This document shows positions 1,414 to 34,972 of a DNA stretch of 64,000 bases, piece after piece. Under the pieces are notes generated by a model. That model had not been told where the DNA came from and searched no databases. It saw only the letters and a program-made list of their open reading frames with translations. A program made the translations under genes and the position numbers. This stretch comes from a bacterium. GTDB taxonomy: Bacteria > Electryoneota > Electryoneia > Electryoneales > Electryoneaceae. How positions within the stretch are numbered: position 1 is the first letter of the stretch; each line of letters begins with the position of its first letter. Location of the stretch: NCBI GenBank assembly GCA_020444425.1, contig JAHLLB010000001.1:266938-330937 (forward strand). The letters run 5' to 3'.

Positions 1414-1569
1414 GCGCGTATACTGTCATCTGGTAGATGGTCGTGGCAAGGCAGAACGTAGCAAACGAAGAAGCGGTGGAACTCCTCCCGGGAGCCAACG
1501 GTGCAACGGTGGGAGTTCGACACAACACGCGCAATCAGGCAGGATTCACCCTCACGAACAGACCCGTCC

Positions 1570-3615
1570 ATGAGCCCTCGTGCTATTTTACATCGTGGTT
1601 TGCCGCTGCTGCTGGTCATCGTGCTGGCGGCTTCAATCTTCGCGCAAACTCCGCAACAGCGCAGAAATTCCAACGCACCGCAGAGTTCGCAGCCGGACTC
1701 CCTGCTGTGGCAGACGAAACCGGAAACGCTGCGCATTGACCGCACGTTGCAGCCGGAGCCCATCCGTCCCAATTTTAATCCGTTCCAGAACGTCGAGCAG
1801 AGTACCGAAGAAGCGGCGCAACGGCGGCAATTGTCGCAGCTGAACAATGCCGCACGGCAGTTCGAGTTCATGGGACAGCACGAACGCGCACTCGACATGT
1901 ACCAGCGGATGTACGATATCGATCCGGACAGCCGGCAGGCGTACGACGGCCTGAAACGCACTCTTGGCGCGCTCGGCCAGTGGGACACGTTGGAACTGCT
2001 GATCCGCGAACGGATGGTGAATCCGTCCGGCTGGAGCGACCGTGCCAGCTTGCTCGCGGAACTGGGCGGAGCGTTGTACAAGTCCGGGCAGATGGCGCGT
2101 GCGGACTCGGCATGGGATGCGGCATTAAGCGAATCGCCGGTCTCTGAGCGCAATTACCAGGAAGTCGCGGGTGTGCAACTGAGGCTGCGGCTGATGGAAG
2201 AAGCGATCGACACCTACAAGCTGGGCCGCGAGGATCTTAATCGTCCGACCCTCTACGCCATCAACCTTGCCAGCCTCTACACCGGCATCATGAACTGGAA
2301 GGACGCAACCAGCGAATTCCTGCTCGTTCTGAGGGAGAACGACCGCCGGGTACACTATGTCCGGCGTGGATTGGCCAATTATCCGGACACTCCCGCCGCC
2401 AACGAAGCGGTGATCGAGGGCATCGAGGACGAACTGGACGCGACTCGCAGAAGTGAACCGTGGCCGGGGCACCGTGCGCAATTGCACGAGCTGCTGGTTG
2501 ATCAACGCACCAAGAACGGGCAATACGAGGAAGCTCTGGAAGCGGTCGCGGAACTGGACAATCTGGTCAGTGCGCACGGCGACCGGTTGCTGCGTTTCGC
2601 GGCGGATGCGATCAATGAAGGCTACGAGGATGTTGCCGAGCAGGCGCTGGACATCGCGGCGGAGCGATTGCGTGATCCGGAAGGTGCAGACGTTGTCAAC
2701 CTGATGCGCGCCCAGGTTGCGCAGGTGGAAGAGAATTTCCAGCGCGCGGATTCGTTGTTCACCGTGGTACTCGACCAGCCGGCATCCGCACGTGTCGAAC
2801 GGTCGGCGTTGATGAGCCGTGGGCTGGTCCGGTTGCAGTTCCTCGATCAGGCGAAGGACGCGGCAAAGGATTTCCGTGGTGTGCGCACTCTCGGCTGGCC
2901 CGACTACGACCGCCGGCTGGATTATTACGAAGCGATTGCGCTGGTGCGGATTGACAGCTTGGATGCCGCTTTGATCCCCCTCGAGCGTCCGCTACAACGG
3001 GAACGGCCCGAGAGTGACACCCATGTTGGCTTTGAAACCGAGCAAGGTGTGATCACCGATGCCGACCTGACCCATCTCGCCGCGCGGATCATGCTGTGGC
3101 AGGGTGACAAGGAAGCCGCGTCCACGTTGCTGGATTCGGTGTTGAGCCCACCGGTCGGGGCGTCCGCAGAGAACGAGACGTTACTCCTGCTGCAATTGCT
3201 GACAACAACGCAGGACACAACCGCGCTGGACCTGTACGCCGAGGCCGATCACGCCGGGTTCAAGGGGGATACAGCGCGGGCGTTGACATTGCTCGATTCA
3301 CTGGCTCAGAACGCGGAAACGCCGGAGATGCTGCGCGTCGAAGCGGGCTACAACGCGGCGCTGCTGCGTCTCGATGGCGGTGACACGCAGGCCGTGGTCG
3401 ATTTCGCCAACGCCAACCCGGGCCACCCGAAGGTCGAGGAGGCATGGTACCTGCTCGGGCAGTGGTGGGAAGCGCAAGGCAACGCGAACGAAGCCTCCAT
3501 CGCTTACGAGATGGTGCTGCTTGATTTTCCGGACGGTCTGCTGCAGGCGTTGGCACGACTGCGACTGGAGGAACTGACGCTACAGGAGTTTCTCCCCGAA
3601 CCGGCGGAGGGGTGA
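1570..3615 (+). CDS. Secreted TPR-repeat protein
   Basis: ORF 1501..3615. The likely start is the internal ATG at 1570 (MSPRAILHRGLPLLLVIVLAASIFAQ is a signal peptide). Alpha-helical repeat composition (A/L/E/R-rich, periodic W/Y/G) is typical of TPR proteins. Confidence 0.55.
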   Translation: MSPRAILHRGLPLLLVIVLAASIFAQTPQQRRNSNAPQSSQPDSLLWQTKPETLRIDRTLQPEPIRPNFNPFQNVEQSTEEAAQRRQLSQLNNAARQFEFMGQHERALDMYQRMYDIDPDSRQAYDGLKRTLGALGQWDTLELLIRERMVNPSGWSDRASLLAELGGALYKSGQMARADSAWDAALSESPVSERNYQEVAGVQLRLRLMEEAIDTYKLGREDLNRPTLYAINLASLYTGIMNWKDATSEFLLVLRENDRRVHYVRRGLANYPDTPAANEAVIEGIEDELDATRRSEPWPGHRAQLHELLVDQRTKNGQYEEALEAVAELDNLVSAHGDRLLRFAADAINEGYEDVAEQALDIAAERLRDPEGADVVNLMRAQVAQVEENFQRADSLFTVVLDQPASARVERSALMSRGLVRLQFLDQAKDAAKDFRGVRTLGWPDYDRRLDYYEAIALVRIDSLDAALIPLERPLQRERPESDTHVGFETEQGVITDADLTHLAARIMLWQGDKEAASTLLDSVLSPPVGASAENETLLLLQLLTTTQDTTALDLYAEADHAGFKGDTARALTLLDSLAQNAETPEMLRVEAGYNAALLRLDGGDTQAVVDFANANPGHPKVEEAWYLLGQWWEAQGNANEASIAYEMVLLDFPDGLLQALARLRLEELTLQEFLPEPAEG

Positions 3616-3869
3616 GGCGGCAAGCGGTATACGGTTGTCGGTAGGTGGTTGTCCGTGATCGGTGAACGGTTGATGATAGATGAAATACGATGTCGCCCGG
3701 GCTGAAGCCCAAGGGCGTGTGTGCTGTGGGTTCCTGACTTACGGACAATCCCGGGCTGAAGCCCGAGGGCAAGAATAGATACCCCAGAAGCGATGTTCTC
3801 CAGATAGCGATGTGCTCCGGATTGGTATGTGCCCCTGATGGCTTTGCCAGCAGGGATTATCCGCACAGA

Positions 3870-4760
3870 TGTCCCCCGCGCAGGAAAGGGGACATGTGAA
3901 CGGATTCATGTCCTCAATTCGAGTGGGTCTGCTGAAGAGATTATAGTCCTTTTCCGATGTGTGGCGCGTCAAGCCGTTCACTTGTCCCCGTCTGGATTGA
4001 GCTGACAGGGGGACAACTGTGGCACAAACCGGTCCCCACACCCTATCCACCCCCGCTATCGACTTGGTCACTCAGATGTCCCCCGCGCAGGAAAGGGGAC
4101 ATGTGAACGGATACATGTCCTTAATTCGAGTGAGTCTGCTGTAGAGATTGTAGTCCTTTTTGCGATGTGTGGCGCGTCAAGCCGTTCACTTGTCCCCGTC
4201 TGGATTGAGCTGACAGGGGGACAACTGTGGCACAAACCGGTCCCCACACCCTATCCACCCCTCAATCGACTTGGTCACTCACACCGATCCGACAGCATCC
4301 AATGCCACAGATGTCCCCCGCGCAGGAAAGGGGACATGTGAACGGATACACGACCTTAATTCGAGTGAGTCTGCTGTAGAGATTGTAGTCCTTTTTGCGA
4401 TGTGTGGTGCGTCAAGCCGTTCACTTGTCCCCGTCTGGATTGAGCTGACAGGGGGACAACTGTGGCACAAACCGGTCCCCACACCCTATCCACCCCCGCT
4501 ATCGACTTGGTCACTCAGATGTCCCCCGCGCAGGAAAGGGGACATGTGAACGGATACATGTCCTTAATTCGAGTGAGTCTGCTGTAGAGATTGTAGTCCT
4601 TTTTGCGATGTGTGGCGCGTCAAGCCGTTCACTTGTCCCCGTCTGGATTGAGCTGACAGGGGGACAACTGTGGCACAAACCGGTCCCCACACCCTATCCA
4701 CCCCTCAATCGACTTGGTCACTCACACCGATCCGACAGCATCCAATGCCACAGATGTCCC
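3870..4760. repeat. Tandem array: two ~440-bp copies, each of two related subunits (~207 and ~237 bp), so four units at about 3875, 4074, 4311 and 4518. Each unit holds several perfect hairpins.
   Basis: Direct reading shows near-identical copies of ATGTCCCCCGCGCAGGAAAGGGGACATGTGAACGGATACATGTCC...TTGTCCCCGTCTGGATTGAGCTGACAGGGGGACAACTGTGGCACAAACCGGTCCCC. Three hairpins are evident: ATGTCCCC/GGGGACAT, GGACATGT/ACATGTCC and TTGTCCCC/GGGGACAA. The two subunit types alternate and end CCCCGCTATCGACTTGGTCACTCAG versus CCTCAATCGACTTGGTCACTCACACCGATCCGACAGCATCCAATGCCACAG. Confidence 0.85.
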
Positions 4761-4767
4761 TCGACAG

Positions 4768-4800
4768 TAAAAAGCCCGGCATCACATGGATGCCGGGCTG
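4768..4800 (-). terminator. Rho-independent terminator for the 4866..6527 gene
   Basis: AAAAGCCCGGCATC-ACATG-GATGCCGGGCT. On the minus strand this reads as a GC-rich 10-bp stem followed by a T-run. It lies 65 nt downstream of the stop. Confidence 0.55.
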
Positions 4801-4865
4801 GATGTCTTACTGAGTACTGCGCACTGACCACTGATCACTGACAACTGAGTACTGGCAACTGTCCC

Positions 4866-6527
4866 TTACCGCACCAGCATAACCTTCTGCGTGGCGTTCA
4901 GCTTGCCCGGAACGGTCGCACGGACGAAGTACAGGCCGCTCGCCAGGTTGTGCGCGTCGAACGTCAGCTTGTGCTCACCGGCGGTGTAGCGGCCGTTCGC
5001 CAGCTCGGTCACCAGCTGTCCGGTCACGTTGTACACCTGCACCTTGAGATCCGAAGCTTCCGGCAACGCGACGGCCACGGTGGTCGACGGGTTGAACGGG
5101 TTCGGGTACGCGCTTCCGATCGCAAATTCGGTCGGCAGGCTGACGAGCTCGCCGTTGGCATCAGCAGCCAATTCCGCGAAACGATCCGCGCCCGTGGCTG
5201 TCCAGTCTTCCGGGTTGAAGTCAAACTCGGCGTCCGAGGTCGGACCTTCCTTGAGGACATAGAACTGGTCCGTCATCTGGAAGCTCGGGTTGGTGTACGA
5301 TCCGACGTACGCCGTGAACCAGTAGCCACCGCCCGGCGCGAGATCCGGGAAGTACTGGGTCATATCCAGCACCTCAAAGTTGAACATCGCGGGGATGGTG
5401 AAGTTGATCCTGCTGACTGGACCAAACAGCTGGCCGTTCGGGAACAGGATCTCGGTCCAGTACGAACCATTCGGGAACGGCTGCGCGATCTGACCGGTGA
5501 AGTACACGTCATAGACCACATCACCGCCGCCTGCAGGCACCACCGAAGTCTGCGGAATCAGGTTGAAGATGATGCCTTCCGGATCGGTATCCGCGAGCAC
5601 GCCGACATTATCCACACCAGCGTACCAGCCCCAGCTGCCGAGGTCATCGTAGTACCAGCTGAACATGACCGCGTCTGCGCCGAAAACGTCGTCGGTCACA
5701 TCAAACGAGGCGGTCAGGTTGCCACCGGTATCGCCGTCGACGGTGAAGATGACGGTCCAGTTCGCACCGGAATCCAGCGACCACGCTGTTTCCATCATTT
5801 CGGTTTCGTATTCCTGGAAGTAGTACTCATAGCTGAGCACAACCCCGGCGGCGTCGGTGATGTCCACATCCGGCGTCAGCAACCGCTCCATCAGGTGCAC
5901 GCTGCTGCCCGGGTAGTCGGAGTCAACGAGCATGTACGGCGTCGAGAACAAACCACGGGAATTCGGGATCGTGCCATCATCGACCGTCCAGGTGCCCGAC
6001 GCAACCGTCGTTTCCACCGCCCAGTCCGTCGGGAAACCGTCGTCGAAATCTTCCAGCAACGCCCAGTCCGCCGGATCGAACCAGATCATGGTCACCGGGC
6101 CGGCCGGGGTCGATTCACCGTCCGTGTAGTATGCGGTCACTTCGTAGTCGTAGGAACCGTAGTCCGGCAGCAGGTCGAAGTAAGTTTCGTCCGTTGCGGC
6201 ACCGATGAATTCACCTTCACGGTAAACGCGGTATTCGACGAACTCTTCGAGATCGTCCGTGTTGTTCCACTGCTGCATCGCCTGATTCCAGAGACGCGGG
6301 TCGATCCGGAAACGCGGGGTGCGCTTCTGATCGTCAGCCGTGTCGACTTCCGGTTCAAACACATTCTGCTGCAGCACGGCATCCGTGGCGACAGGAGCCG
6401 ACCATGTCAGCGTGACGCCACCGGTATTCTGATCAATTGTTCCGGACAGATTGGTCGGCGGGTTCTGCGCGAACGCAGGCGCGACACACAGTGCCAGCAG
6501 CAACAACCCCAACATCGTTTTTTTCAT
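4866..6527 (-). CDS. T9SS C-terminal-domain secreted protein with Fn3-like N-terminal domain
   Basis: Signal peptide MKKTMLGLLLLALCVAPAFAQ. Fn3-like segment (GVTLTWSAPV...YRVYREGEFIGAATDETYFDLLPDYGSYDYEVTAYY). C-terminus YPNPFNPSTT...[23 protein letters not shown] is a T9SS type A sorting domain. Confidence 0.75.
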   Translation of the reverse strand: MKKTMLGLLLLALCVAPAFAQNPPTNLSGTIDQNTGGVTLTWSAPVATDAVLQQNVFEPEVDTADDQKRTPRFRIDPRLWNQAMQQWNNTDDLEEFVEYRVYREGEFIGAATDETYFDLLPDYGSYDYEVTAYYTDGESTPAGPVTMIWFDPADWALLEDFDDGFPTDWAVETTVASGTWTVDDGTIPNSRGLFSTPYMLVDSDYPGSSVHLMERLLTPDVDITDAAGVVLSYEYYFQEYETEMMETAWSLDSGANWTVIFTVDGDTGGNLTASFDVTDDVFGADAVMFSWYYDDLGSWGWYAGVDNVGVLADTDPEGIIFNLIPQTSVVPAGGGDVVYDVYFTGQIAQPFPNGSYWTEILFPNGQLFGPVSRINFTIPAMFNFEVLDMTQYFPDLAPGGGYWFTAYVGSYTNPSFQMTDQFYVLKEGPTSDAEFDFNPEDWTATGADRFAELAADANGELVSLPTEFAIGSAYPNPFNPSTTVAVALPEASDLKVQVYNVTGQLVTELANGRYTAGEHKLTFDAHNLASGLYFVRATVPGKLNATQKVMLVR

Positions 6528-6740
6528 CCTGTGCTCCCTCCCAGCTTGTCACGGGCGCCATCTGATTGGACAACAGCGGGACCGTGCTATGTCAACGTTA
6601 CATGTGTGTGCGATCTGAATCGGTACGACAACCAGAGGTGAGGACAGAGCTCGCCCCCGTTCATTTCCGACGTGTAAATATACCGCATCTGCAGTGCGAT
6701 AAAAACCTGGAATTCGAATTCTCTGAAATTCTCTCAGTAC

Positions 6741-6768
6741 AAAAGGCCGGGCTCCGAGGCCCGGCCTG
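6741..6768 (-). terminator. Rho-independent terminator for the 6802..8637 gene
   Basis: AAAAGGCCGGGCTCCGAGGCCCGGCC: an 8-bp GC stem preceded by A4 on the plus strand, which is a T-run after the hairpin on the minus strand. Confidence 0.55.
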
Positions 6769-6801
6769 TGATAGGATCAATCGAAATGTAACAGCCCGTG
6801 A

Positions 6802-8637
6802 TTAGCGGACGAGCATCACTTTCTGGGTCGCGTTCAACTGGCCCGGGACCATCGCGCGGATGAAATACAGCCCGCTGGCGAGGTTGGACGCGTCAAACGT
6901 CAGGTTGTGCTGACCGGCGCCGAACTGGCCGTTCGCGATCTCGGCCACCTGCTGCCCGGCGACATTGTACGCAACAACCGTCAGGTCCGCCGTTTCCGGC
7001 AACGCGATGTTGAGCGTCGTCGTCGGGTTGAACGGGTTCGGGTAGGCTGCGTTCAGAGCATATTCGCTCGGCAGCGTTTCGTTGCTGCTCAGGTCGGCCG
7101 TTTCGCTGGCGACCGGCCTGGCGACCCATTCGTATCCGTTCAGCGGGAAGATATCGCCGCTGATGTCCGCGTTCTGAGCGGGCACCACTTCAAACTCGAA
7201 GCAGTCGGTCACATACTCGTTGGCGACATCAACACCAACGCAGAGGGTAAAGAATCCCGGAGGTGCGCCGTTCACAGCCTGGTTCAGGGTGAGGTCGAAA
7301 ATGTTGCCGGAAACGTACGTGAACTGCTCCTTGCTGATGTTGTATTCACGGCCGTTCTGCAGGATCGCGTAGATCCAATACTGCGCAAGCAGGTTGCCGG
7401 TCGTGTTGGTCGCGGTGAAGTACAGGTCGTAGTCGAACGTGCCACCCTGCGGAACCTGCAGCGGGTCCGCGGACGGGGTCAGGTCGAGAACGAGACCGTA
7501 CACCGAGCTGTTCATGTCCCAGAAACCGACACGGGCCGCGTAGTGCGCCACACCGACCAGTTCAATGTCGTCATCCATGTCGATGTTCGCCGCAGCAACC
7601 GCGCTCGCGCCGTTGTACAGGATCGAGATGACATGCTTCTGGTAGTTGTGATCGCCGAGGTTTTCCCACCAAGCGACTTCGTCGTCACCCAGCGCTGCGC
7701 CGTAGATGTCCAGGTCGCCGTCACCGTCCATGTCCGCCACGCCGATATCCATTACGCCGTAGAAGCCCCAGGAGATGTCGATACGGTCCCAGCTTGAACC
7801 AGTGCCGCTGAAGTTTTCGAACACCGATACGGTGCTGCCGTCGCCAACATCACCACAGGCGACGAGGTCCAGGTCGCCGTCGCCGTTCAGGTCGCCGACG
7901 TCGATAGCCTTAGGATGCTCGTAGTTGTTCCCAACGGAGAAGTGCTGCCAGTTGGTGCCGTTGCTGCCGATGGACAAATCGTTCCACCAGGCGATTCCGT
8001 TGGCACGCGCGCTGACGATGTCCGTCCGGCCGTCACCGTTGAAGTCACCCTTGGCAATGCCGACACGCTGGAATTCGTTGAAATCGGCGTCGGTACGGTT
8101 CCAGTACGAGACACCGTCGCCCGGATTACGGAACCAGCCGATCTGGGAACCGGCAATCGCGGCGTCGAGGTCGCCGTCGCTGTCCATGTCGAACAGTTCG
8201 ATCTGCCACGGCATCCCCATGTTGCCCTGGGCCTGGTCGCTGATCACGTGATCGGTCCACACGGACGCGTCGCCGTTGTCGTTGGACAACCAGCCGGCGC
8301 GATGATCGGCCGGACCGTAGCCCTCACGGGCGTAGGCGATGTCGATGTTGCCGTCGGCGTCGATGTCGTCGAGATCGACACGCACGAGACCCGGCATGTT
8401 GGTCAGGATGTCATGCTGGGTGTACTGCGCGTCACCATCATTTTCCCACCAGCTCAATGTGCCGCCGTAATACGTGGTGGTCACGAGATCCGGGAAGGTG
8501 TCACCATTGAGGTCGGCCACCTGTACGTCAATCGGGCCGTCCATGTTGTTTCCTACCGCCATATACCCCCAGTCCTGCGCGGACGCGATGGACGCGACCA
8601 GCAGCAAGGGCAGGCAAAACGCGACTACTTTTTTCAT
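6802..8637 (-). CDS. FG-GAP/VCBS-repeat beta-propeller protein with T9SS C-terminal sorting domain
   Basis: ORF 6802..8844. The likely start is ATG at 8637 (MKKVVAFCLPLLLVASIASAQ signal peptide, GGAGGA SD). Repeated DxNGDGxxD(I/L)V motifs (DLNGDGDLDLVACGD, DFNGDGRTDIVSA, DMDGDGDLDIYGA). C-terminal YPNPFNPTTT...GLYFIRAMVPGQLNATQKVMLVR. Confidence 0.75.
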   Translation of the reverse strand: MKKVVAFCLPLLLVASIASAQDWGYMAVGNNMDGPIDVQVADLNGDTFPDLVTTTYYGGTLSWWENDGDAQYTQHDILTNMPGLVRVDLDDIDADGNIDIAYAREGYGPADHRAGWLSNDNGDASVWTDHVISDQAQGNMGMPWQIELFDMDSDGDLDAAIAGSQIGWFRNPGDGVSYWNRTDADFNEFQRVGIAKGDFNGDGRTDIVSARANGIAWWNDLSIGSNGTNWQHFSVGNNYEHPKAIDVGDLNGDGDLDLVACGDVGDGSTVSVFENFSGTGSSWDRIDISWGFYGVMDIGVADMDGDGDLDIYGAALGDDEVAWWENLGDHNYQKHVISILYNGASAVAAANIDMDDDIELVGVAHYAARVGFWDMNSSVYGLVLDLTPSADPLQVPQGGTFDYDLYFTATNTTGNLLAQYWIYAILQNGREYNISKEQFTYVSGNIFDLTLNQAVNGAPPGFFTLCVGVDVANEYVTDCFEFEVVPAQNADISGDIFPLNGYEWVARPVASETADLSSNETLPSEYALNAAYPNPFNPTTTLNIALPETADLTVVAYNVAGQQVAEIANGQFGAGQHNLTFDASNLASGLYFIRAMVPGQLNATQKVMLVR

Positions 8638-8963
8638 TGCGATCCTCCATGACTGTGAAAAAGCCGGCAGCAGCCCGCAACAGGCTGGACCGGTGGATGT
8701 ACGTGTTTCGGCAAAGATGCGCGAATTTGTTTGAAAGCTACCCCTCTCTCGACTCCAAAGTTCCAACCGGAGTCCCCGAGAGTCAGGCAAACCTAACTTC
8801 GAAATGTTTCCGCACCATGCAGGCTGTGTGGTGAACAAGTACACGGGGGATGTACGAATCCTCTCTTACAACGACAGGGTGTGAAAACGGCTGGTAGTTT
8901 ATGATTCTTTCATCATACTTATGATACTCCTGTTTGTGATAGAATTTGTAGAAATTCGCCGTT

Positions 8964-8979
8964 TGTGACCTGTGTCACA
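8964..8979. promoter_or_regulatory. Perfect CRP/FNR-type palindrome TGTGA-N6-TCACA in the AT-rich promoter region upstream of the FG-GAP gene
   Basis: TGTGACCTGTGTCACA read directly. It matches the TGTGAnnnnnnTCACA consensus exactly. It sits in the 488-bp intergenic region (8638-9125), about 330 bp upstream of the 8637 start codon, in locally AT-rich sequence. Confidence 0.35.
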
Positions 8980-9125
8980 GCGGCTCCCGCCAAAGCGGGG
9001 TTGGGTTCTTACCCGTGTCGATATGGCCTGATTTCGGGCTCAATTTCGCAGGCGCTAGTAGTAACTACAACCGGCATTTAGTTGTTGTCAACGGACACGG
9101 GTGGAGCATGCGAGATTTTTGGGGT

Positions 9126-19899: not shown

Positions 19900-20364
19900 A
19901 TGTACGGTTTTGCAGGCATAGAAGCGGGGAACGGGCTGACGTTGATGCTGGCAGGAATGCTGGTGGTCTTCGCCGCCCTGGTGACCCTCCTTTTCCTGAT
20001 GAAGTTTCTCAAGAAGGGGTTGGACGCGCAGCGTGCGGCGGTAAACCGGCGCCAGAAAGCACGTGAGGCGAAGGCGGCCGCGGCACGTGGTGACACGGTC
20101 GACGAGCCCGGCATCCGTGCCATCGAAGGTCCGGAAGGGCACGACATCAGCGGTGTCGAAATTGCTGCGATTGCGCTGACGTTGCTGTTCGAATCGGAGC
20201 AGGTGCACGACAACGAGTCGATGGTGTTGACGTTGCACGGGCTGCCGAAACCTTACAGCAACTGGTGGCAGGGTCGAATCGATCCGGCGTGGCGTGCTGC
20301 GGTGACCAAGGGACGTCCGGCAACATTGCAGACATCTGACCCGGAACGCGGGACCAGGGTGTAA
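19900..20364 (+). CDS. Na+-pump decarboxylase gamma subunit (OadG family membrane anchor)
   Basis: 154 aa with a single N-terminal TM helix (GLTLMLAGMLVVFAALVTLLFLMKF) and a soluble tail (GVEIAAIALTLLFE) like OadG/MmdD. Position between the alpha and biotin-carrier genes supports the call. Confidence 0.55.
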   Translation: MYGFAGIEAGNGLTLMLAGMLVVFAALVTLLFLMKFLKKGLDAQRAAVNRRQKAREAKAAAARGDTVDEPGIRAIEGPEGHDISGVEIAAIALTLLFESEQVHDNESMVLTLHGLPKPYSNWWQGRIDPAWRAAVTKGRPATLQTSDPERGTRV

Positions 20365-20466
20365 GAAACAACTACCGTCCACGAAAGACACAAAAGTTAG
20401 CGAAAATAGTACAAAGAGTTTTTGAGTGGCATCAAGTAGTTTTTTTCGTTCGTTTTCGCGGTTTTC

Positions 20467-20937
20467 GTGGACAGTTCATACGTTGAGAGCAACATGAACA
20501 CGTACAAGTTCAAGATTTACGGCCATGAGTTCGAAACGCGCGTCATCCGTCGTGACGAGGATGAGGTCGTGGTTTCCGTGAACGGTCAGGAATACAAGGC
20601 GTACCTCGAGCCGACCAAGCGGTCGATGCGGGCCAAGCCGACGCCGAAGATGGCACGTCCCGCGGCGGTCCCGTCGGAAGGGTTGAAGAAAACCGCGCCG
20701 CCGACGGAGGCCAAGGGTGCGGGTGCGGTCAAGGCACCGTTGCCCGGCTTGATCCTCAAGGTGCTGGTCAAGGAAGGCGACACGGTCAAATCCGGCGACC
20801 CGCTCTGCATCATGGAAGCGATGAAGATGGAGAATACCGTCGCCGCGCCGATGGGCGGAACCATCGCCAAGGTGTCGACCGCGGAAGGCCAGTCGGTGCT
20901 GGAAGGCGCGGAACTGGTGCTGATCAACCCGGCGTAA
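20467..20937 (+). CDS. Biotin carboxyl carrier protein of the decarboxylase (biotinyl-domain protein)
   Basis: C-terminal biotinyl domain with the CIMEAMKMENTVAAPMGGTIAKV motif (EAMKM biotinylation site) and an A/P/K-rich linker. Confidence 0.8.
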   Translation: MDSSYVESNMNTYKFKIYGHEFETRVIRRDEDEVVVSVNGQEYKAYLEPTKRSMRAKPTPKMARPAAVPSEGLKKTAPPTEAKGAGAVKAPLPGLILKVLVKEGDTVKSGDPLCIMEAMKMENTVAAPMGGTIAKVSTAEGQSVLEGAELVLINPA

Positions 20938-21073
20938 AGCCAGCTTCGTCAGAATCATGGAGACCGTTTTTTCCGGGCGGCACGCCTAACTGTTTGCTTT
21001 TTCGATTGATGTACAGCTAGTTATACCTATACACGACAGTTTGCTCAAATCGAACAAACGGGGGATTGGTATC

Positions 21074-22406: not shown

Positions 22407-23552
22407 ATGGACCTGCTAGGTCAGTTCATTGAATTCACCGGGTTTGCGCAACCCGGGCTGTGGAAAAATCTGATCATGATCGCGGTAGGCTTGTTCTTCA
22501 TCTACCTCGCGATCAAGAAGGATTACGAACCGTTGCTGTTGATCCCGATCGGGTTCGGGATTCTCGTTGGCAACATTCCGTTCCCGCAGGATGCCGGCCT
22601 CAACATCGGGATCTACGAGGAAAGCTCCGTCCTGCATTACCTCTACTTCGGGGTGTCGAAGGGTATCTACCCGCCGTTGATCTTCCTCGGCATCGGCGCG
22701 TTGACCGACTTTTCGGCCTTGCTCAGCAATCCGAAGCTGGTGTTGCTCGGTGCGGCGGCTCAGGTCGGCATCTTCATCACGCTACTTGGGGCGTTGGCGC
22801 TGGGCTTTTCTCCGGAACAGGCGGCGGCGATCGGCATTATTGGCGGTGCGGACGGTCCGACGGCAATCTTCATCTCGTCCAAGCTGGCGCCGGAACTGAT
22901 GGGCGCGATTGCGATTGCGGCATATTCGTACATGGCGCTGGTGCCGGTGATTCAGCCGCCGATCATGAAGCTGCTGACGACGGAAGCAGAACGGAAGATC
23001 CGGATGAAGCCGTCCCGTTCAGTGCCGAAATCGGAGAAGGTGATCTTCCCGTTGGTCGGTCTGCTGGCGACGTGTTTCATCGCGCCGGGTGCGTTGCCGC
23101 TGCTGGGCATGCTGTTCTTCGGTAATTTGCTGAAGGAAAGCGGCGTCACCGAACGTCTCGCGAAAACCGCCGGTACCTCGATGATCGACATCGTGACCAT
23201 TCTACTCGGGTTGACCGTCGGCGCGTCAACCCAGGCGAGTGTCTTCCTGACCCCGCAATCGATCTACATTTTCGTGCTCGGTGCGGTCAGCTTCATGATC
23301 GCGACCGCGGGCGGCTTGTTGTTCGCCAAGTTCATGAACCTGTTCCTCAAGGGGGACGCGAGGATCAACCCGTTGATCGGCGCGGCGGGAGTCAGCGCGG
23401 TGCCGGACAGCGCCCGTGTCGTGCAGCAGGTCGGTCGTCAGATCGATCCCGACAACTACCTGTTGATGCACGCGATGGGTCCGAACGTGTCGGGCGTGAT
23501 CGGTTCGGCGACGGCTGCCGGTGTATTGCTGTCGTACTTCCTCGCGGGGTGA
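22407..23552 (+). CDS. Na+-translocating decarboxylase beta subunit (OadB/MmdB family integral membrane protein)
   Basis: 381 aa, polytopic. The N-terminus MDLLGQFIEFTGFAQPGLWKNLIMIAVGLFFIYLAIKKDYEPLLLIPIGFGILVGNIP is characteristic of OadB/GcdB/MmdB. Confidence 0.85.
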   Translation: MDLLGQFIEFTGFAQPGLWKNLIMIAVGLFFIYLAIKKDYEPLLLIPIGFGILVGNIPFPQDAGLNIGIYEESSVLHYLYFGVSKGIYPPLIFLGIGALTDFSALLSNPKLVLLGAAAQVGIFITLLGALALGFSPEQAAAIGIIGGADGPTAIFISSKLAPELMGAIAIAAYSYMALVPVIQPPIMKLLTTEAERKIRMKPSRSVPKSEKVIFPLVGLLATCFIAPGALPLLGMLFFGNLLKESGVTERLAKTAGTSMIDIVTILLGLTVGASTQASVFLTPQSIYIFVLGAVSFMIATAGGLLFAKFMNLFLKGDARINPLIGAAGVSAVPDSARVVQQVGRQIDPDNYLLMHAMGPNVSGVIGSATAAGVLLSYFLAG

Positions 23553-23646
23553 TGATCGGTAGTCGGTAAACGGTTGTCGGTTATTGGTAATCGGTAATCG
23601 GTAATCGGTAATCGGTAATCGGTAATCGGTAATCGGTAATCGGTAA
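23553..23646. repeat. Heptanucleotide tandem repeat (CGGTAAT)n, 8 perfect units preceded by about 5 degenerate units
   Basis: GATCGGTAGTCGGTAAACGGTTGTCGGTTATTGGTAATCGGTAATCGGTAATC... ending ...CGGTAACTGAG. Begins immediately after the mmdB stop codon. Confidence 0.9.
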
Positions 23647-23684: not shown

Positions 23685-23712
23685 GGGGACACTTACTCCG
23701 TTAAGTGTCCCC
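23685..23712. repeat. Palindromic element GGGGACACTTA-CTCCGT-TAAGTGTCCCC; may also terminate sodC on the minus strand, since a T-rich tract follows
   Basis: Perfect 11-bp stem. Member of a family that recurs at 31995, 32072 and 34082. On the minus strand the hairpin is followed by GATTTATTTCATCTTC. Confidence 0.6.
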
Positions 23713-23802
23713 GTTGCTCTCATCGTCTCTGTACTTCTTTTTACTTCGTACTTCTTTTCTACTTTCGACTTCTTTGCGACTCTGTACTTCTGATCGACTT
23801 CG

Positions 23803-25273: not shown

Positions 25274-25350
25274 AACGGGCTCTGGGCTCTGGGCTCTGGG
25301 CTCTGGGCTCTGGGCTCTGAGACCTCAGACCGCAGACCGCAGACCGCAGA
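25264..25350. repeat. Heptamer tandem repeats (GGGCTCT)x5 followed by (CAGACCG)x3-4
   Basis: GGGCTCTGGGCTCTGGGCTCTGGGCTCTGGGCTCTGAGACCTCAGACCGCAGACCGCAGACCGCAGATAG. Overlaps the last codons and 3' flank of the carbonic anhydrase gene. Confidence 0.9.
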
Positions 25351-31994: not shown

Positions 31995-32022
31995 GGGGAC
32001 ACTTTGTCCCCAAAGTGTCCCC
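31995..32022. repeat. Palindromic element GGGGACACTTTG-TCCC-CAAAGTGTCCCC
   Basis: Perfect 12-bp inverted repeat, read directly. Upstream of valS. Confidence 0.8.
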
Positions 32023-32071: not shown

Positions 32072-32106
32072 CCCGGGGACACTTTCGGAGAAAGCGTCCC
32101 CCGGGT
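32072..32106. repeat. Palindromic element CCCGGGGACACTTTC-GGAG-AAAGCGTCCCCCGGG; 25 of 27 bases match the copy inside valS
   Basis: Read directly. One mismatch within the stem. Confidence 0.8.
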
Positions 32107-32189: not shown

Positions 32190-32256
32190 GATGCGGACTG
32201 CGGACTGCGGACTGCGGACTGCGGACTGCGGACTGCGGACTGCGGACTGCGGACGC
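32190..32256. repeat. Heptamer tandem repeat (TGCGGAC)x9
   Basis: GATGCGGACTGCGGACTGCGGACTGCGGACTGCGGACTGCGGACTGCGGACTGCGGACGCAC, about 50 bp upstream of the valS start. Confidence 0.9.
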
Positions 32257-32305: not shown

Positions 32306-34972
32306 GTGGATATCCCGAAGCAATACGACCCGAAAGAAGTGGAAGCGCACTGGCGCGAATGGTGGCACGAGAACGATTTCTTCAAGACCAGTCCGAGCAT
32401 GTCGAAGGAACCGTACGTGATCATGATGCCGCCGCCGAATGTAACCGGCGTGCTGCACATGGGCCACGCGTTACAGGACACGATCCAGGACGAGCTGATC
32501 CGTTACTACCGCATGAAGGGCTTTGAAGCCCACTGGCAGGCGGGCAAGGATCACGCCGGGATCGCGACGCAGACTGTGGTCGAACGGGAGATGAAGAAAA
32601 ACGGCGAGCCGGACCGTCGCACGATGGGCCGTGAGAAGTTCATTGAACGTGTCTGGCAGTTTGTGGAAAAGAACCGCAACACGATCAGCACGCAGAAGAA
32701 GTCGCTCGGTATCTCGCCGGACTTCTCGAAAGAGCGATTTACTCTTGACGACGGCCTCAGCGACGCCGTCCAGGAAGCGTTCATCAAGCTGCATCGGGAG
32801 GGCCTGATCTATCGCGGACCGTACATCGTTAACTGGTCGCCGAAGTTGCAGTCCGCCATCTCGGACGAAGAGGTGGACTTCAAGGACGAGCAGGGGCACC
32901 TGTGGTACATCCGCTATCCGGGTGTGGACGGTGGCGAGGGTGTGGTTGTCGCGACGACCCGTCCGGAGACGATGCTCGGCGACACGGCGGTGATGGTCCA
33001 TCCGGAAGACGACCGATACAAGCATCTCGTCGGCAAGGAAGTGGTGTTGCCGTTGACCGGACGAAACATTCCGGTGATCGCGGACGATTACGTCGATCGT
33101 GAATTCGGCACCGGCGCGGTGAAAGTGACCCCGGCGCACGACCCGAACGACTTCGAGGTCGGCCGCCGTCACGATCTGGACATGCCGGTCATCCTCGACA
33201 CCGAGGCCCGGATCCAGGCACCAGCGCCGGAGACCTACATCGGGCTGGACCGTGACGCTGCCCGAGAGGCTGTCGTCAAGGATCTCGAGGATCAGGGCTT
33301 CCTCGTCAAGACCGAGGAGTACACGCACAGCGTCGGCTATTGCCACCGGACCAAGGTGCGCATTGAGCCGTATCTGAGCACGCAGTGGTTCCTCAAGATG
33401 AAGCCGCTTGCAAAACGGGCTATCGAAGTCGTTCGCAACGGCGAGATCAAATTTGTCCCGGATCGCTGGGGCAAGGTCTACTTCCAGTGGATGGAAAACA
33501 TTCGCGACTGGTGCATCTCGCGGCAGTTGTGGTGGGGTCACCGGATCCCGGCGTACTACTGCGAGGAGTGCAACTACGTCCACGTTGGCACCGACCACCC
33601 GGACATCTGCCCGGCGTGCGGGTCGAACCAGTGGCGGCAGGATGAGGACGTGCTCGATACGTGGTTCTCGAGCTGGCTGTGGACCTTCTCAACCCTCGGC
33701 TGGCCGAAACAGACCGGCGATTTGCTGTATTATCACCCGACGAATGTACTCGTCAGCGGCTACGACATCATCTTCTTCTGGATCGCCCGGATGATCGTCG
33801 CAAGTTTGTATTTCGTGGACGAGATCCCGTTCAAGCAGGTGTATATCACCGGGATGATCAAGGACAAGCAGGGCCGTTGGATGAGCAAGTCGCTCGGCAA
33901 TGGCATCGACCCGCTGGAAATGGTCGATCAATACGGCGCGGACGCGGTGCGTTACTCATTGACTGTGCTCAACACCGTCGGGCAGGACATTCGCTTGGAT
34001 CCCAGCCGTTTCGAGATGGGTCGCAACTTCGCGAACAAGCTGTGGAACTCGTTCCGTTTCCTCGTCAATCGGGAACTGGACGGTGACACTTTCGGAGAAA
34101 GTGTCCCCTCCCCGATGGAAATCGAAGATCGCTGGATCGAGGGCCGGATGATCCAGACCGCGCGTGAGCTGGAAGAAAAGATAGAACAGTACCGGCTGGA
34201 TGAGGCGTTGATCGGCCTCTACCGTTTCATCTGGAACGATTTCTGTGACTGGTACATCGAGACGATCAAGACGCGTATCGGCGACGACGCCGACGCTGCC
34301 TCGGCGAAGCAGACGCTGCACTTTGCGATCAACGTTTTCGACAAGATCATTCACCTGCTGCATCCGTTCATGCCGTTCATCACCGAAGAGATGTACCAGA
34401 CATTGAACGGTGTCATGGGTGAAGCGTGGGCGCAGGACCGTGCGGGCAGCATCGCGGTGTCGCCGTTCCCGGACTTTTCGGATAGTTCGATCGACGAGAC
34501 GGCGGTCATGGAATTTGAATACGTCCGTGAGTTGGTCGGTGCAATCCGCAATGTGCGCGGCGAACTGCTGGTTCCGCCGGTCGCGGAAGCGCAGTTGGTG
34601 ATGCGTGCGGACGATCCGAAGCTGGACATCGTGCGTCGTGAGTGGGTGACGGTGAAGCGACTGGCCCGGTTGAGTGGTGACGAACTGGTGACCGCCAACA
34701 CCAAGCCGAAAGCCTCCGCGACGACGTTGGTCGAAGGCCGCGAGATCTACATCCCGCTGGAAGGGTTGATCGATCTGGACGCCGAGAAAGAGCGTGTGCA
34801 GAAGGAAATCGGTAAGCTCGAAGGGTTGTTCAAGGGCGTGGAAAAGAAGCTGTCGAACGAAAAGTTCGTCGCCAACGCGCCGGAGGATGTGGTCGCGAAG
34901 GAGCGCGAGAAGATGGACACCTACAGCAACGATCTCGCGAAACTGAAGGCGCATCTGGCGGATTTGAGCTGA
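32306..34972 (+). CDS. valS: Valine--tRNA ligase
   Basis: 888 aa, GTG start. HIGH motif PPNVTGVLHMGHAL. KMSKS motif (GRWMSKSLGNGIDP). Editing and anticodon-binding domains. C-terminal coiled-coil. Confidence 0.95.
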   Translation: MDIPKQYDPKEVEAHWREWWHENDFFKTSPSMSKEPYVIMMPPPNVTGVLHMGHALQDTIQDELIRYYRMKGFEAHWQAGKDHAGIATQTVVEREMKKNGEPDRRTMGREKFIERVWQFVEKNRNTISTQKKSLGISPDFSKERFTLDDGLSDAVQEAFIKLHREGLIYRGPYIVNWSPKLQSAISDEEVDFKDEQGHLWYIRYPGVDGGEGVVVATTRPETMLGDTAVMVHPEDDRYKHLVGKEVVLPLTGRNIPVIADDYVDREFGTGAVKVTPAHDPNDFEVGRRHDLDMPVILDTEARIQAPAPETYIGLDRDAAREAVVKDLEDQGFLVKTEEYTHSVGYCHRTKVRIEPYLSTQWFLKMKPLAKRAIEVVRNGEIKFVPDRWGKVYFQWMENIRDWCISRQLWWGHRIPAYYCEECNYVHVGTDHPDICPACGSNQWRQDEDVLDTWFSSWLWTFSTLGWPKQTGDLLYYHPTNVLVSGYDIIFFWIARMIVASLYFVDEIPFKQVYITGMIKDKQGRWMSKSLGNGIDPLEMVDQYGADAVRYSLTVLNTVGQDIRLDPSRFEMGRNFANKLWNSFRFLVNRELDGDTFGESVPSPMEIEDRWIEGRMIQTARELEEKIEQYRLDEALIGLYRFIWNDFCDWYIETIKTRIGDDADAASAKQTLHFAINVFDKIIHLLHPFMPFITEEMYQTLNGVMGEAWAQDRAGSIAVSPFPDFSDSSIDETAVMEFEYVRELVGAIRNVRGELLVPPVAEAQLVMRADDPKLDIVRREWVTVKRLARLSGDELVTANTKPKASATTLVEGREIYIPLEGLIDLDAEKERVQKEIGKLEGLFKGVEKKLSNEKFVANAPEDVVAKEREKMDTYSNDLAKLKAHLADLS
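34082..34108 (+). repeat. Palindromic element GGTGACACTTTC-GGAG-AAAGTGTCCCC located in-frame inside valS, encoding the GDTFGESVPSP segment
   Basis: Perfect 9-bp stem GACACTTTC/GAAAGTGTC with loop GGAG. Near-identical to the intergenic copy at 32072-32106. Confidence 0.8.

Follow-up and report, generated by a model that had tools for sequence, protein, structure and literature searches.

A tandem array of palindromic units resembling REPIN clusters in a 3'-3' intergenic spacer of an Electryoneaceae bacterium

What kind of element fills a long non-coding gap between two convergent genes with hairpins, and how did it arise there? The question is raised by a stretch of 64,000 nucleotides (hereafter the window) from a bacterium of the Electryoneaceae (GenBank assembly GCA_020444425.1, contig JAHLLB010000001.1, positions 266,938 to 330,937). 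In this window a spacer of 1250 nt (3616-4865) lies between the stop codon of a gene for a tetratricopeptide repeat (TPR) protein and the stop codon of a gene with a Por_Secre_tail domain, which encodes a cargo protein of the type IX secretion system (T9SS). The TPR gene is on the plus strand and the cargo gene on the minus strand; they are thus convergent and the gap is a 3'-3' spacer, not a 5' leader. A first-pass annotation of the sequence had placed here, in a 1.25-kb non-coding gap between the TPR gene and the first T9SS cargo gene, an array of hairpin-dense units, and the placement holds since the open reading frames (ORFs) of both genes bound the gap. In our view the array probably arose recently and within a single species, as a tandem cluster of a palindromic extragenic element with no dedicated function, comparable to the doublets of repetitive extragenic palindromic (REP) sequences known as REPINs and to bacterial interspersed mosaic elements (BIMEs).

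Units, hairpins and core of the array

Tandem Repeats Finder called a 443-nt period with 2.0 copies at 3864-4760 (97% matches, score 1722) and also a 208-nt period with four copies. With the unit boundaries set by repeat search and a MAFFT alignment, the array was found to consist of four units in the order A-B-A-B (207, 235, 208 and 235 nt, spanning 3866-4750), which form two 443-nt super-units that are 97% identical. The earlier description of two ~440-bp A-B pairs is therefore borne out. The units and their inverted-repeat cores are listed below.

3866-4072, plus strand: unit U1, type A, 207 nt; the edge unit and the most diverged, with 8-9 mismatches to the other units
4073-4307, plus strand: unit U2, type B, 235 nt; carries a 28-nt 3' insertion at 4280-4307
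4308-4515, plus strand: unit U3, type A, 208 nt; hairpin P2 broken by two uncompensated changes (ACATGTCC to ACACGACC)
4516-4750, plus strand: unit U4, type B, 235 nt; matches U2 at 235 of 235 positions within the window
4751-4762, plus strand: incomplete start of a fifth unit (CAGATGTCCC / CAGATGTCCCTC), 12 nt; the right-hand array junction
4305-4465, no strand assigned: inverted-repeat core of 161 nt; its counterparts lie at 3863-4022, 4070-4230 and 4513-4673

The units repeat whole at 95-100% identity. Type B is distinguished from type A by the 28-nt 3' insertion and by a CGCT/T-CA difference. The units do not, however, differ only at their 3' ends as first described, because 11 substitution columns were found among them in the alignment, most of these private to U1 and U3. 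The identity of U2 and U4, together with the edge unit being the most diverged, is what is expected for recent unequal exchange.

Three perfect stem-loops had been ascribed to every unit. Hairpins P1 (ATGTCCCC-N11-GGGGACAT) and P3 (TTGTCCCC-N19-GGGGACAA) are perfect in all four units whereas P2 (GGACATGT...ACATGTCC) is perfect in U2 and U4 only, its 3' arm carrying one uncompensated change in U1 and two in U3. P2 also shares six bases (4097-4102) with P1 and the two hairpins are therefore mutually exclusive. The pattern GTCCCC-N3-30-GGGGAC occurs eight times, against 0.18 occurrences expected.

Taken as a whole, a unit is no more stable than dinucleotide shuffles (z of -0.78 on the plus and -0.09 on the minus strand). 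Within every unit, two inverted modules of ~45 nt enclose a centre of 70 nt to form a 161-nt core, and a linker of 46 or 74 nt follows the core. The modules have the general form CCACAG-W-TGTCCCCC-loop-GGGGACA-W-GTGAACGG, with the left module of the core at 4305-4465 reading CCACAG-A-TGTCCCCC-loop11-GGGGACA-T-GTGAACGG and the right module being the inverse with a 19-nt loop. Module and inverted module agree at 14 of 15 positions in the outer block and at 15 of 16 in the inner block, and each module by itself is a GTCCCC/GGGGAC hairpin. Terminal inverted repeats of the kind found in miniature inverted-repeat transposable elements (MITEs) are present, CCACAGATGTCCCCC being matched by the reverse complement CCACAGTTGTCCCCC and the match running on into the inner block.

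The core folds as one 28-bp hairpin with z values of -3.5 and -3.2 on the two strands and -2.95 as DNA; it thus shows the anatomy of a REPIN, in which two inverted REP-like modules form a long hairpin. The two strands have the same excess in folding energy, as is characteristic of an inverted repeat in DNA and not of a strand-specific RNA. A comparison of the copies for compensatory mutations, which the first-pass annotation had proposed as a check on conserved secondary structure, gave that structure no support: across the four copies, the only homologues available, the long hairpin has 27 invariant pairs out of 28 and zero covariation, and three P2 pairs are broken by one-sided changes.

Gain of the array in a short ancestral spacer

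The gene order PfkB-LpxL-TPR(+)/cargo(-) is kept in every relative locus fetched, and the spacer is short in all of them. The TPR protein has few relatives, and a scan of metagenome_contigs with the TPR alignment gave no additional locus.

L007, sister species (CAXXKJ010000002.1, a 4.54-Mb contig): TPR protein 93% identical in amino acids, spacer of 242 nt
L003: TPR protein 63% identical, spacer of 92 nt
L004: TPR protein 59% identical, spacer of 116 nt

The array was not found at the orthologous site in the sister species, nor in the more distant L003 and L004. The genes flanking the spacer in the sister species are 87-88% identical to the window in DNA. Homology between the two ends at the TPR stop codon, returns at 3810-3862 and restarts at 4769, so that the insertion can be delimited by two anchors among the features that surround the array.

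1501-3615, plus strand: TPR protein gene, 704 aa
3625-3680, plus strand: degenerate heptamers CGGTNNN directly after the TPR stop codon, with blastn similarity to an ATCGGTA array at 23555
3696-3770, plus strand: small hairpin CCCGGGCTGAAGCCCRAGGGC in two direct copies 54 nt apart, unique in the window
3784-3845, plus strand: 17-nt repeats with a GATGT(G/T)C(T/C)CC motif
4773-4799, minus strand: cargo-gene intrinsic terminator, whose 11-bp stem runs into T5 on the minus strand and has A5 ahead of it on the plus strand
4809-4861, plus strand: about seven heptamer repeats ACTGNNN, which separate the terminator from the stop codon of the cargo gene and are shared with the sister species
4866-6527, minus strand: Por_Secre_tail (T9SS cargo) gene, 553 aa

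The left anchor is the last copy of the 17-nt repeat (ATGTGCCCCTGATGG), where window 3827-3855 corresponds to L007 8216-8244 (28/29), and the right anchor is the common terminator, where window 4768-4800 corresponds to L007 8280-8312 (31/33). Between the anchors there are 35 nt in the sister species and 912 nt in the window, or 27 nt in the window without the four units. This indicates that the array was gained in the lineage of the window since the two species (~88% identity) split, and L007 shows the empty site. A derivation of the unit tail from the ancestral spacer was rejected, as the alignment with the 35 nt of L007 is no better than that of shuffles (477 of 2000). The spacer has thus grown from 242 to 1250 nt between species that are ~88% identical, through the birth and amplification of a repeat, and the finding mainly records a fast turnover of 3'-3' intergenic spacers in an uncultured lineage of the FCB group.

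The rest of the spacer shows several smaller repeats. Eight copies of GGGCTCT (8121-8175) occur in the sister species where the window has the CGGTNNN heptamers. The small hairpin (CCCGGGCTGAAGCCC), whose direct copies start at 3696 and 3750, was not found in the spacer of the sister species and has no further copy in the window. On the plus strand of the gap 3616-4865 there are 13 copies of the pentamer GATGT and on its minus strand none, the sites being in the leader 17-nt repeats, at every unit start and at every unit centre. A related motif, ATGTGCSCC, is also repeated in the sister spacer (L007 8200-8237).

If the array is a tandem cluster of this kind, a B-type sequence of ~235 nt would first have been inserted or rearranged into the hypervariable 3'-3' spacer and then duplicated. 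One of the copies would have lost 28 nt to give type A, and the A-B dimer would have been duplicated again through unequal recombination or replication slippage. Such an array would encode no discrete RNA and, if transcribed, would presumably be read-through 3' sequence of the TPR mRNA. The cluster adjoins the bidirectional terminator common to the two convergent genes, and hairpins in the read-through might, as a side effect, hold up 3' exonucleases or convergent read-through in the manner of enterobacterial REP and BIME sequences.

Known repeat clusters, mobile elements and dispersed palindromes

Several observations weigh against the array being such a cluster of palindromic elements. Neither the remaining 63 kb of the window nor ~170 kb of relatives' loci yielded a further copy of the core or of its module. 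A covariance-model search, as proposed in the first-pass annotation, was run with a model of the core; this model and blastn (word size 7) match the four array copies only in the 64-kb window, and neither has a match in the relatives' loci. An exact 23-base pattern that fits both modules has no matches in genome_contigs (185,579 species, the sister genome included), metagenome_contigs or viral_contigs. No target-site duplication was seen, and the 161-nt core is not flanked by a direct repeat. The 12-nt CACAGATGTCCC present at both edges of the array simply reflects the phase of the repeat. Among the window ORFs scanned, no Y1 or DDE transposase and no integrase, Cas or CsrA-like protein was found.

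The copy number, moreover, rests on one assembly. The exact number of units and the identity of U2 and U4 are provisional, because the minimal path through an assembly graph that had collapsed would also read A-B-A-B with identical B units. Finally, all 11 substitution columns lie outside the 88 module columns, for which the probability is (119/207)^11 or ~0.002 if the changes are independent. Judged from this pattern, the only observation that points to constraint on them, the hairpin modules could be under selection, unlike those of a purely neutral satellite. Gene conversion or the assembler's consensus could alternatively lie behind the invariance of the modules.

The closest likeness is to the ordered REPIN clusters of Pseudomonas fluorescens SBW25, which consist of tandem near-identical REP doublets together with flanking sequence, the largest containing four REPINs and one extra REP in more than 700 bp (Bertels & Rainey 2011, PMC3116915). 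Our array has four cores and an incomplete start in ~900 bp, and both are extragenic. However, the REPINs of SBW25 have hundreds of dispersed copies and a cognate REP-associated tyrosine transposase (RAYT), neither of which was found in the sequence available for the array. The core of the array is also longer (161 nt, as against ~70-110 nt for a REPIN) and its modules lack the GTAG/CGTC heads described for REP superfamilies. Membership in a dispersed or mobile family is not supported, the many dispersed copies that mark REPINs and MITEs having been sought and not found in the window, the relatives' loci and the three collections. The array was for this reason not filed as a REPIN although it resembles REPIN clusters, and kinship with them is putative, by anatomy. 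It is a new orphan among bacterial repeat clusters of a known kind.

BIME-2 elements of Escherichia coli are made up of alternating REP types with conserved linkers, expand in tandem with a period of ~100 nt and form a genome-wide family. BIMEs are bound by integration host factor (IHF), gyrase and Pol I, and their presumed effects on mRNA 3'-end protection and termination are by-products. The array is like BIME-2 in its alternating palindromes with two kinds of linker, its tandem expansion and its location at 3' ends in a convergent spacer, whereas its period is 207/235 nt and no wider family is known for it to date.

Bacterial MITEs such as Correia/NEMIS, ERIC and RUP are dispersed multi-copy elements with target-site duplications and usually a related insertion sequence (IS), and they are rarely found in tandem. 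The array shares with them non-coding elements of 100-200 nt with terminal inverted repeats and a long hairpin near gene ends. It differs in being amplified in tandem, and no dispersed copies, target-site duplication or related IS were found for it in the sequence searched.

The first rival explanation holds that the core is a mobile non-autonomous MITE or REPIN, moved by a RAYT-like or DDE transposase and with dispersed copies elsewhere in the genome, and that the array is a secondarily amplified insertion. The inverted ends of ~45 nt (outer block 14/15, inner block 15/16) and the insertion relative to the sister species fit this explanation, as does the position of the array, since convergent spacers beside terminators are typical landing sites of MITE- and REPIN-like elements. 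The lineage moreover has dispersed 28-nt palindromes with the same GGGGACA/TGTCCCC arm ends, to which the unit sequence at 4216-4246 together with the P3 loop has a weak local similarity when their flanks are included. The pairwise alignments concerned are somewhat better than those of shuffles but were chosen post hoc. A mobile element nevertheless appears unlikely to us, given that no other copy was found in the sequence and collections searched, that neither a target-site duplication nor a transposase was seen in the window, and that a profile hidden Markov model (HMM) of the 28-nt family misses the array. Of the two interpretations offered in the first-pass annotation, a repeated structured RNA and a MITE-like element amplified in place, the latter is the closer. 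Its inverted ends and its insertion were recovered in the 161-nt core and in the comparison with the sister species, while a second copy, a target-site duplication and a transposase were not.

The dispersed palindromes have the form GGGGACACTTW-N6-WAAGTGTCCCC (GGGGACACTT...AAGTGTCCCC) and were found at the following positions.

Window: 23685-23712, 31995-32022, 32075-32101 and 34082-34108
Relatives: L004 8073-8100 and 22424-22451; L009 11300, 13229 and 13273; L010 431, 11946 and 11984

This family recurs in relatives of other genera, sometimes with identical loops at non-orthologous sites. The copies are mostly located in 3' or convergent spacers, often as doublets ~40 nt apart and adjoining heptamer arrays, a setting like that of our array. 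No match to the palindrome was found in viral_contigs or in the literature, and the family could be a REP-like element, a shared terminator or an uptake-signal-like element. One copy (GGTGACACTTTCGGAGAAAGTGTCCCC, 34082-34108) lies in frame within the ORF of valyl-tRNA synthetase (ValRS; 32306-34972), between the catalytic and the anticodon-binding domains, and is near-identical to the intergenic copy at 32075, which is 230 nt upstream of the valS start.

The stems of the array had been said to use the same core as these palindromes. The 7-nt arm ends GGGGACA/TGTCCCC are common to both, but nothing more: the ACTT/AAGT part conserved in the arms of the family is missing from the array modules, the loops of these modules are much larger, and membership of the array hairpins in the 28-nt family was rejected since the profile HMM gives no match to the array. 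The two might have a common origin.

A broader explanation would see the array, the 28-nt palindromes and the heptamer arrays as products of one uncharacterised hairpin-directed repeat system, with either RAYT-like mobilisation or a sequence-specific protein that binds RNA or DNA hairpins, in which the array would be an amplifying BIME-like cluster or a plus-strand decoy RNA with selected modules. We regard this as quite improbable. If the modules were recognition sites of a mobilising or binding protein, REP/RAYT-type or RNA-sponge biology would be extended to a new phylum; to our knowledge nothing of either kind has been described in the phylum of the array. The lineage-wide palindromes and heptamer arrays are arguably worth more attention than the array itself.

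Tandem heptamer arrays occur in many spacers, with a unit that differs from site to site (ATCGGTA x13, GGGCTCT x6-8, TGCGGAC x9), and they abut stop codons both in the genome of the window and in its relatives. The sites found in the window are 3625-3680, 4809-4861, 14945, 19788-19884, 23555-23646, 25277-25350, 32192-32254, 35521, 37741, 37896 and 40131, and those in the relatives are L007 8121-8190 and L004 13118-13150 and ~8050. Comparison of one locus in the window and in the sister species shows that the arrays turn over. They are reminiscent of the short tandemly repeated repetitive (STRR) sequences of cyanobacteria and the TAACTGA repeats of Beggiatoaceae (PMC4679880). Further intergenic tandem repeats, a 33-nt unit in two copies (96% matches) and an 18-nt unit in 3.4 copies, were found at 14733-14797 and 23731-23791.

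RNA, assembly and other explanations

The array could also be thought to be a functional multi-hairpin RNA, either a tandem array of small RNAs (sRNAs) or a sponge that titrates a loop-binding protein, CsrA/RsmA-like or other. GGA is present in each of the three hairpin loops of the plus strand (CAGGAAA, ACGGAU and CUGGAU) and in none of those of the minus strand, the modules are invariant in all four units with the 11 substitutions confined to the centre and tail, and the array lies outside any ORF. Nevertheless, the plus strand as a whole shows no enrichment in GGA (20 occurrences, against 28 on the minus strand), and no CsrA-like motif was found in a six-frame translation of the window. There were no Rfam matches at the gathering threshold in the whole window, and only chance-level sub-threshold miRNA matches at E<=10 over 3500-5000. 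No sigma-70 site and no Bacteroidota-type TAnnTTTG or TTG-N-TAnnTTTG promoter was found in the array. A per-unit terminator is likewise absent, the T5 run in three of the units having no convincing stem ahead of it. The overlap of P1 and P2, the breakage of P2 without compensation in two units and a fold that is symmetric on both strands also speak against an RNA, as does the absence of the array in a sister species of ~88% identity, since a core regulator is rarely so young.

The sRNA NsiR1 of Nostoc, the CsrB/RsmZ sponges and the ToxI RNA of type III toxin-antitoxin systems have a promoter and a terminator for each unit or for the array, are conserved across species and have a gene for a partner protein. 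The array is like these in being made of head-to-tail, hairpin-bearing non-coding units with GGA in the loops of one strand, but unlike them it has no promoter or terminator signal, does not occur in the sister species and has no partner gene nearby. With no Rfam family, promoter, per-unit terminator or covariation and with a fold on both strands, the earlier proposal of a repeated structured RNA or riboregulator array found no support, and an RNA function seems to us very improbable.

Short-read contigs bear on the assembly. Those from Logan (SRR14069905; each found in six samples) include the two genes beside the array and break off at its edges. Over 2353 nt, the right-hand contig (SRR14069905_47907, L001) departs from the window only at 4724 and 4745, both in the last B tail, and agrees at the other 2351 positions. 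It ends about one k-mer upstream of the first mismatch, where a contig would be expected to end ahead of a private single-nucleotide difference if the reads held several copies of the sequence beyond that point. The identity of U2 and U4 in the window may be a consensus artefact or a strain difference. The junction of B tail to A head (ATGCCA/CAGATGTCCCCC, 4302-4319) is distinct from the left- and right-flank junctions and arises only from tandem copies; the repeat is therefore real.

An assembly artefact, in which a repeat of one or two copies or two haplotypes had been chained, would account for the identity of U2 and U4, for an A-B-A-B order that would be the minimal traversal of a graph with two A variants and one B node, and for a window consensus that the Logan contig shows to be imperfect within the array, but it is the least probable explanation of all, as the B-tail-to-A-head junction needs tandem copies, two distinct A variants and (counting Logan) two distinct B tails exist, and independent short-read contigs stop at both edges as at a true repeat. 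The array is likely to be a break point for short-read assemblies and is a possible strain marker of the variable-number tandem repeat (VNTR) type.

Other candidates were rejected on single grounds or a few. The ORFs at 4271..4549 and 4608..4841 had been taken for repeat artefacts, and rightly so: neither is a plausible protein, as no Pfam match was found and a search of 5.8 billion proteins gave no homologue of the 92-aa ORF. Neither of the two is recorded in the gene index, and the periods of 235 and 443 nt are not multiples of 3. The array is not a CRISPR array, as also stated earlier, because the units of 207-235 nt are repeated whole with no variable spacers, where CRISPR arrays have direct repeats of ~24-48 nt set apart by unique spacers, and no Cas domains were found in the scanned ORFs. 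An integron attC array was rejected as there is no integrase in the scanned ORFs, GTGAAC/GTTCAC lie outside the R''/R' consensus (RYYYAAC/GTTRRRY) and the 70-nt centre is not a bulged stem of the attC kind. A diversity-generating retroelement was rejected in view of unit differences that are not adenine-specific and the absence of a reverse transcriptase. A plasmid or phage origin was rejected as well, with no blastn match in the plasmid and phage collections and empty pattern scans of viral_contigs.

DnaA-box-like sites, CTATCCACC in each unit and TTATCCGCA in the left flank, had given rise to the idea of a replication origin or DnaA titration at the array. This was rejected, since DnaA boxes with at most one mismatch number 5 in the window against 7 expected and the minimum of GC skew lies near 18 kb instead. 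The cumulative GC-skew minimum is at ~18000-21000, where gene orientation changes from minus to plus and where non-coding gaps of unusual length (642 and 452 nt) and small ORFs that have no Pfam match were observed. This region could be a replication origin, or the minimum could just be a strand-switch effect.

The surroundings of the array are ordinary chromosome, with genes for MutS2, ValRS, RecG, the beta subunit of oxaloacetate decarboxylase (OAD) and SodC in the window. Five T9SS cargo genes with FG-GAP and Por_Secre_tail domains lie in a row on the minus strand (window 4866-18406; L007 8358-14102). Their 3'-terminal ~240 nt are 67-82% identical to one another in DNA, which indicates paralogues with a common C-terminal sorting domain. 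The organism falls in or near Electryoneota, a candidate phylum of the FCB group, by its OAD beta subunit (22407-23552), which has its nearest named relatives in Ca. Electryonea clarkiae and Ca. Hatepunaea meridiana, at 83-84% identity.

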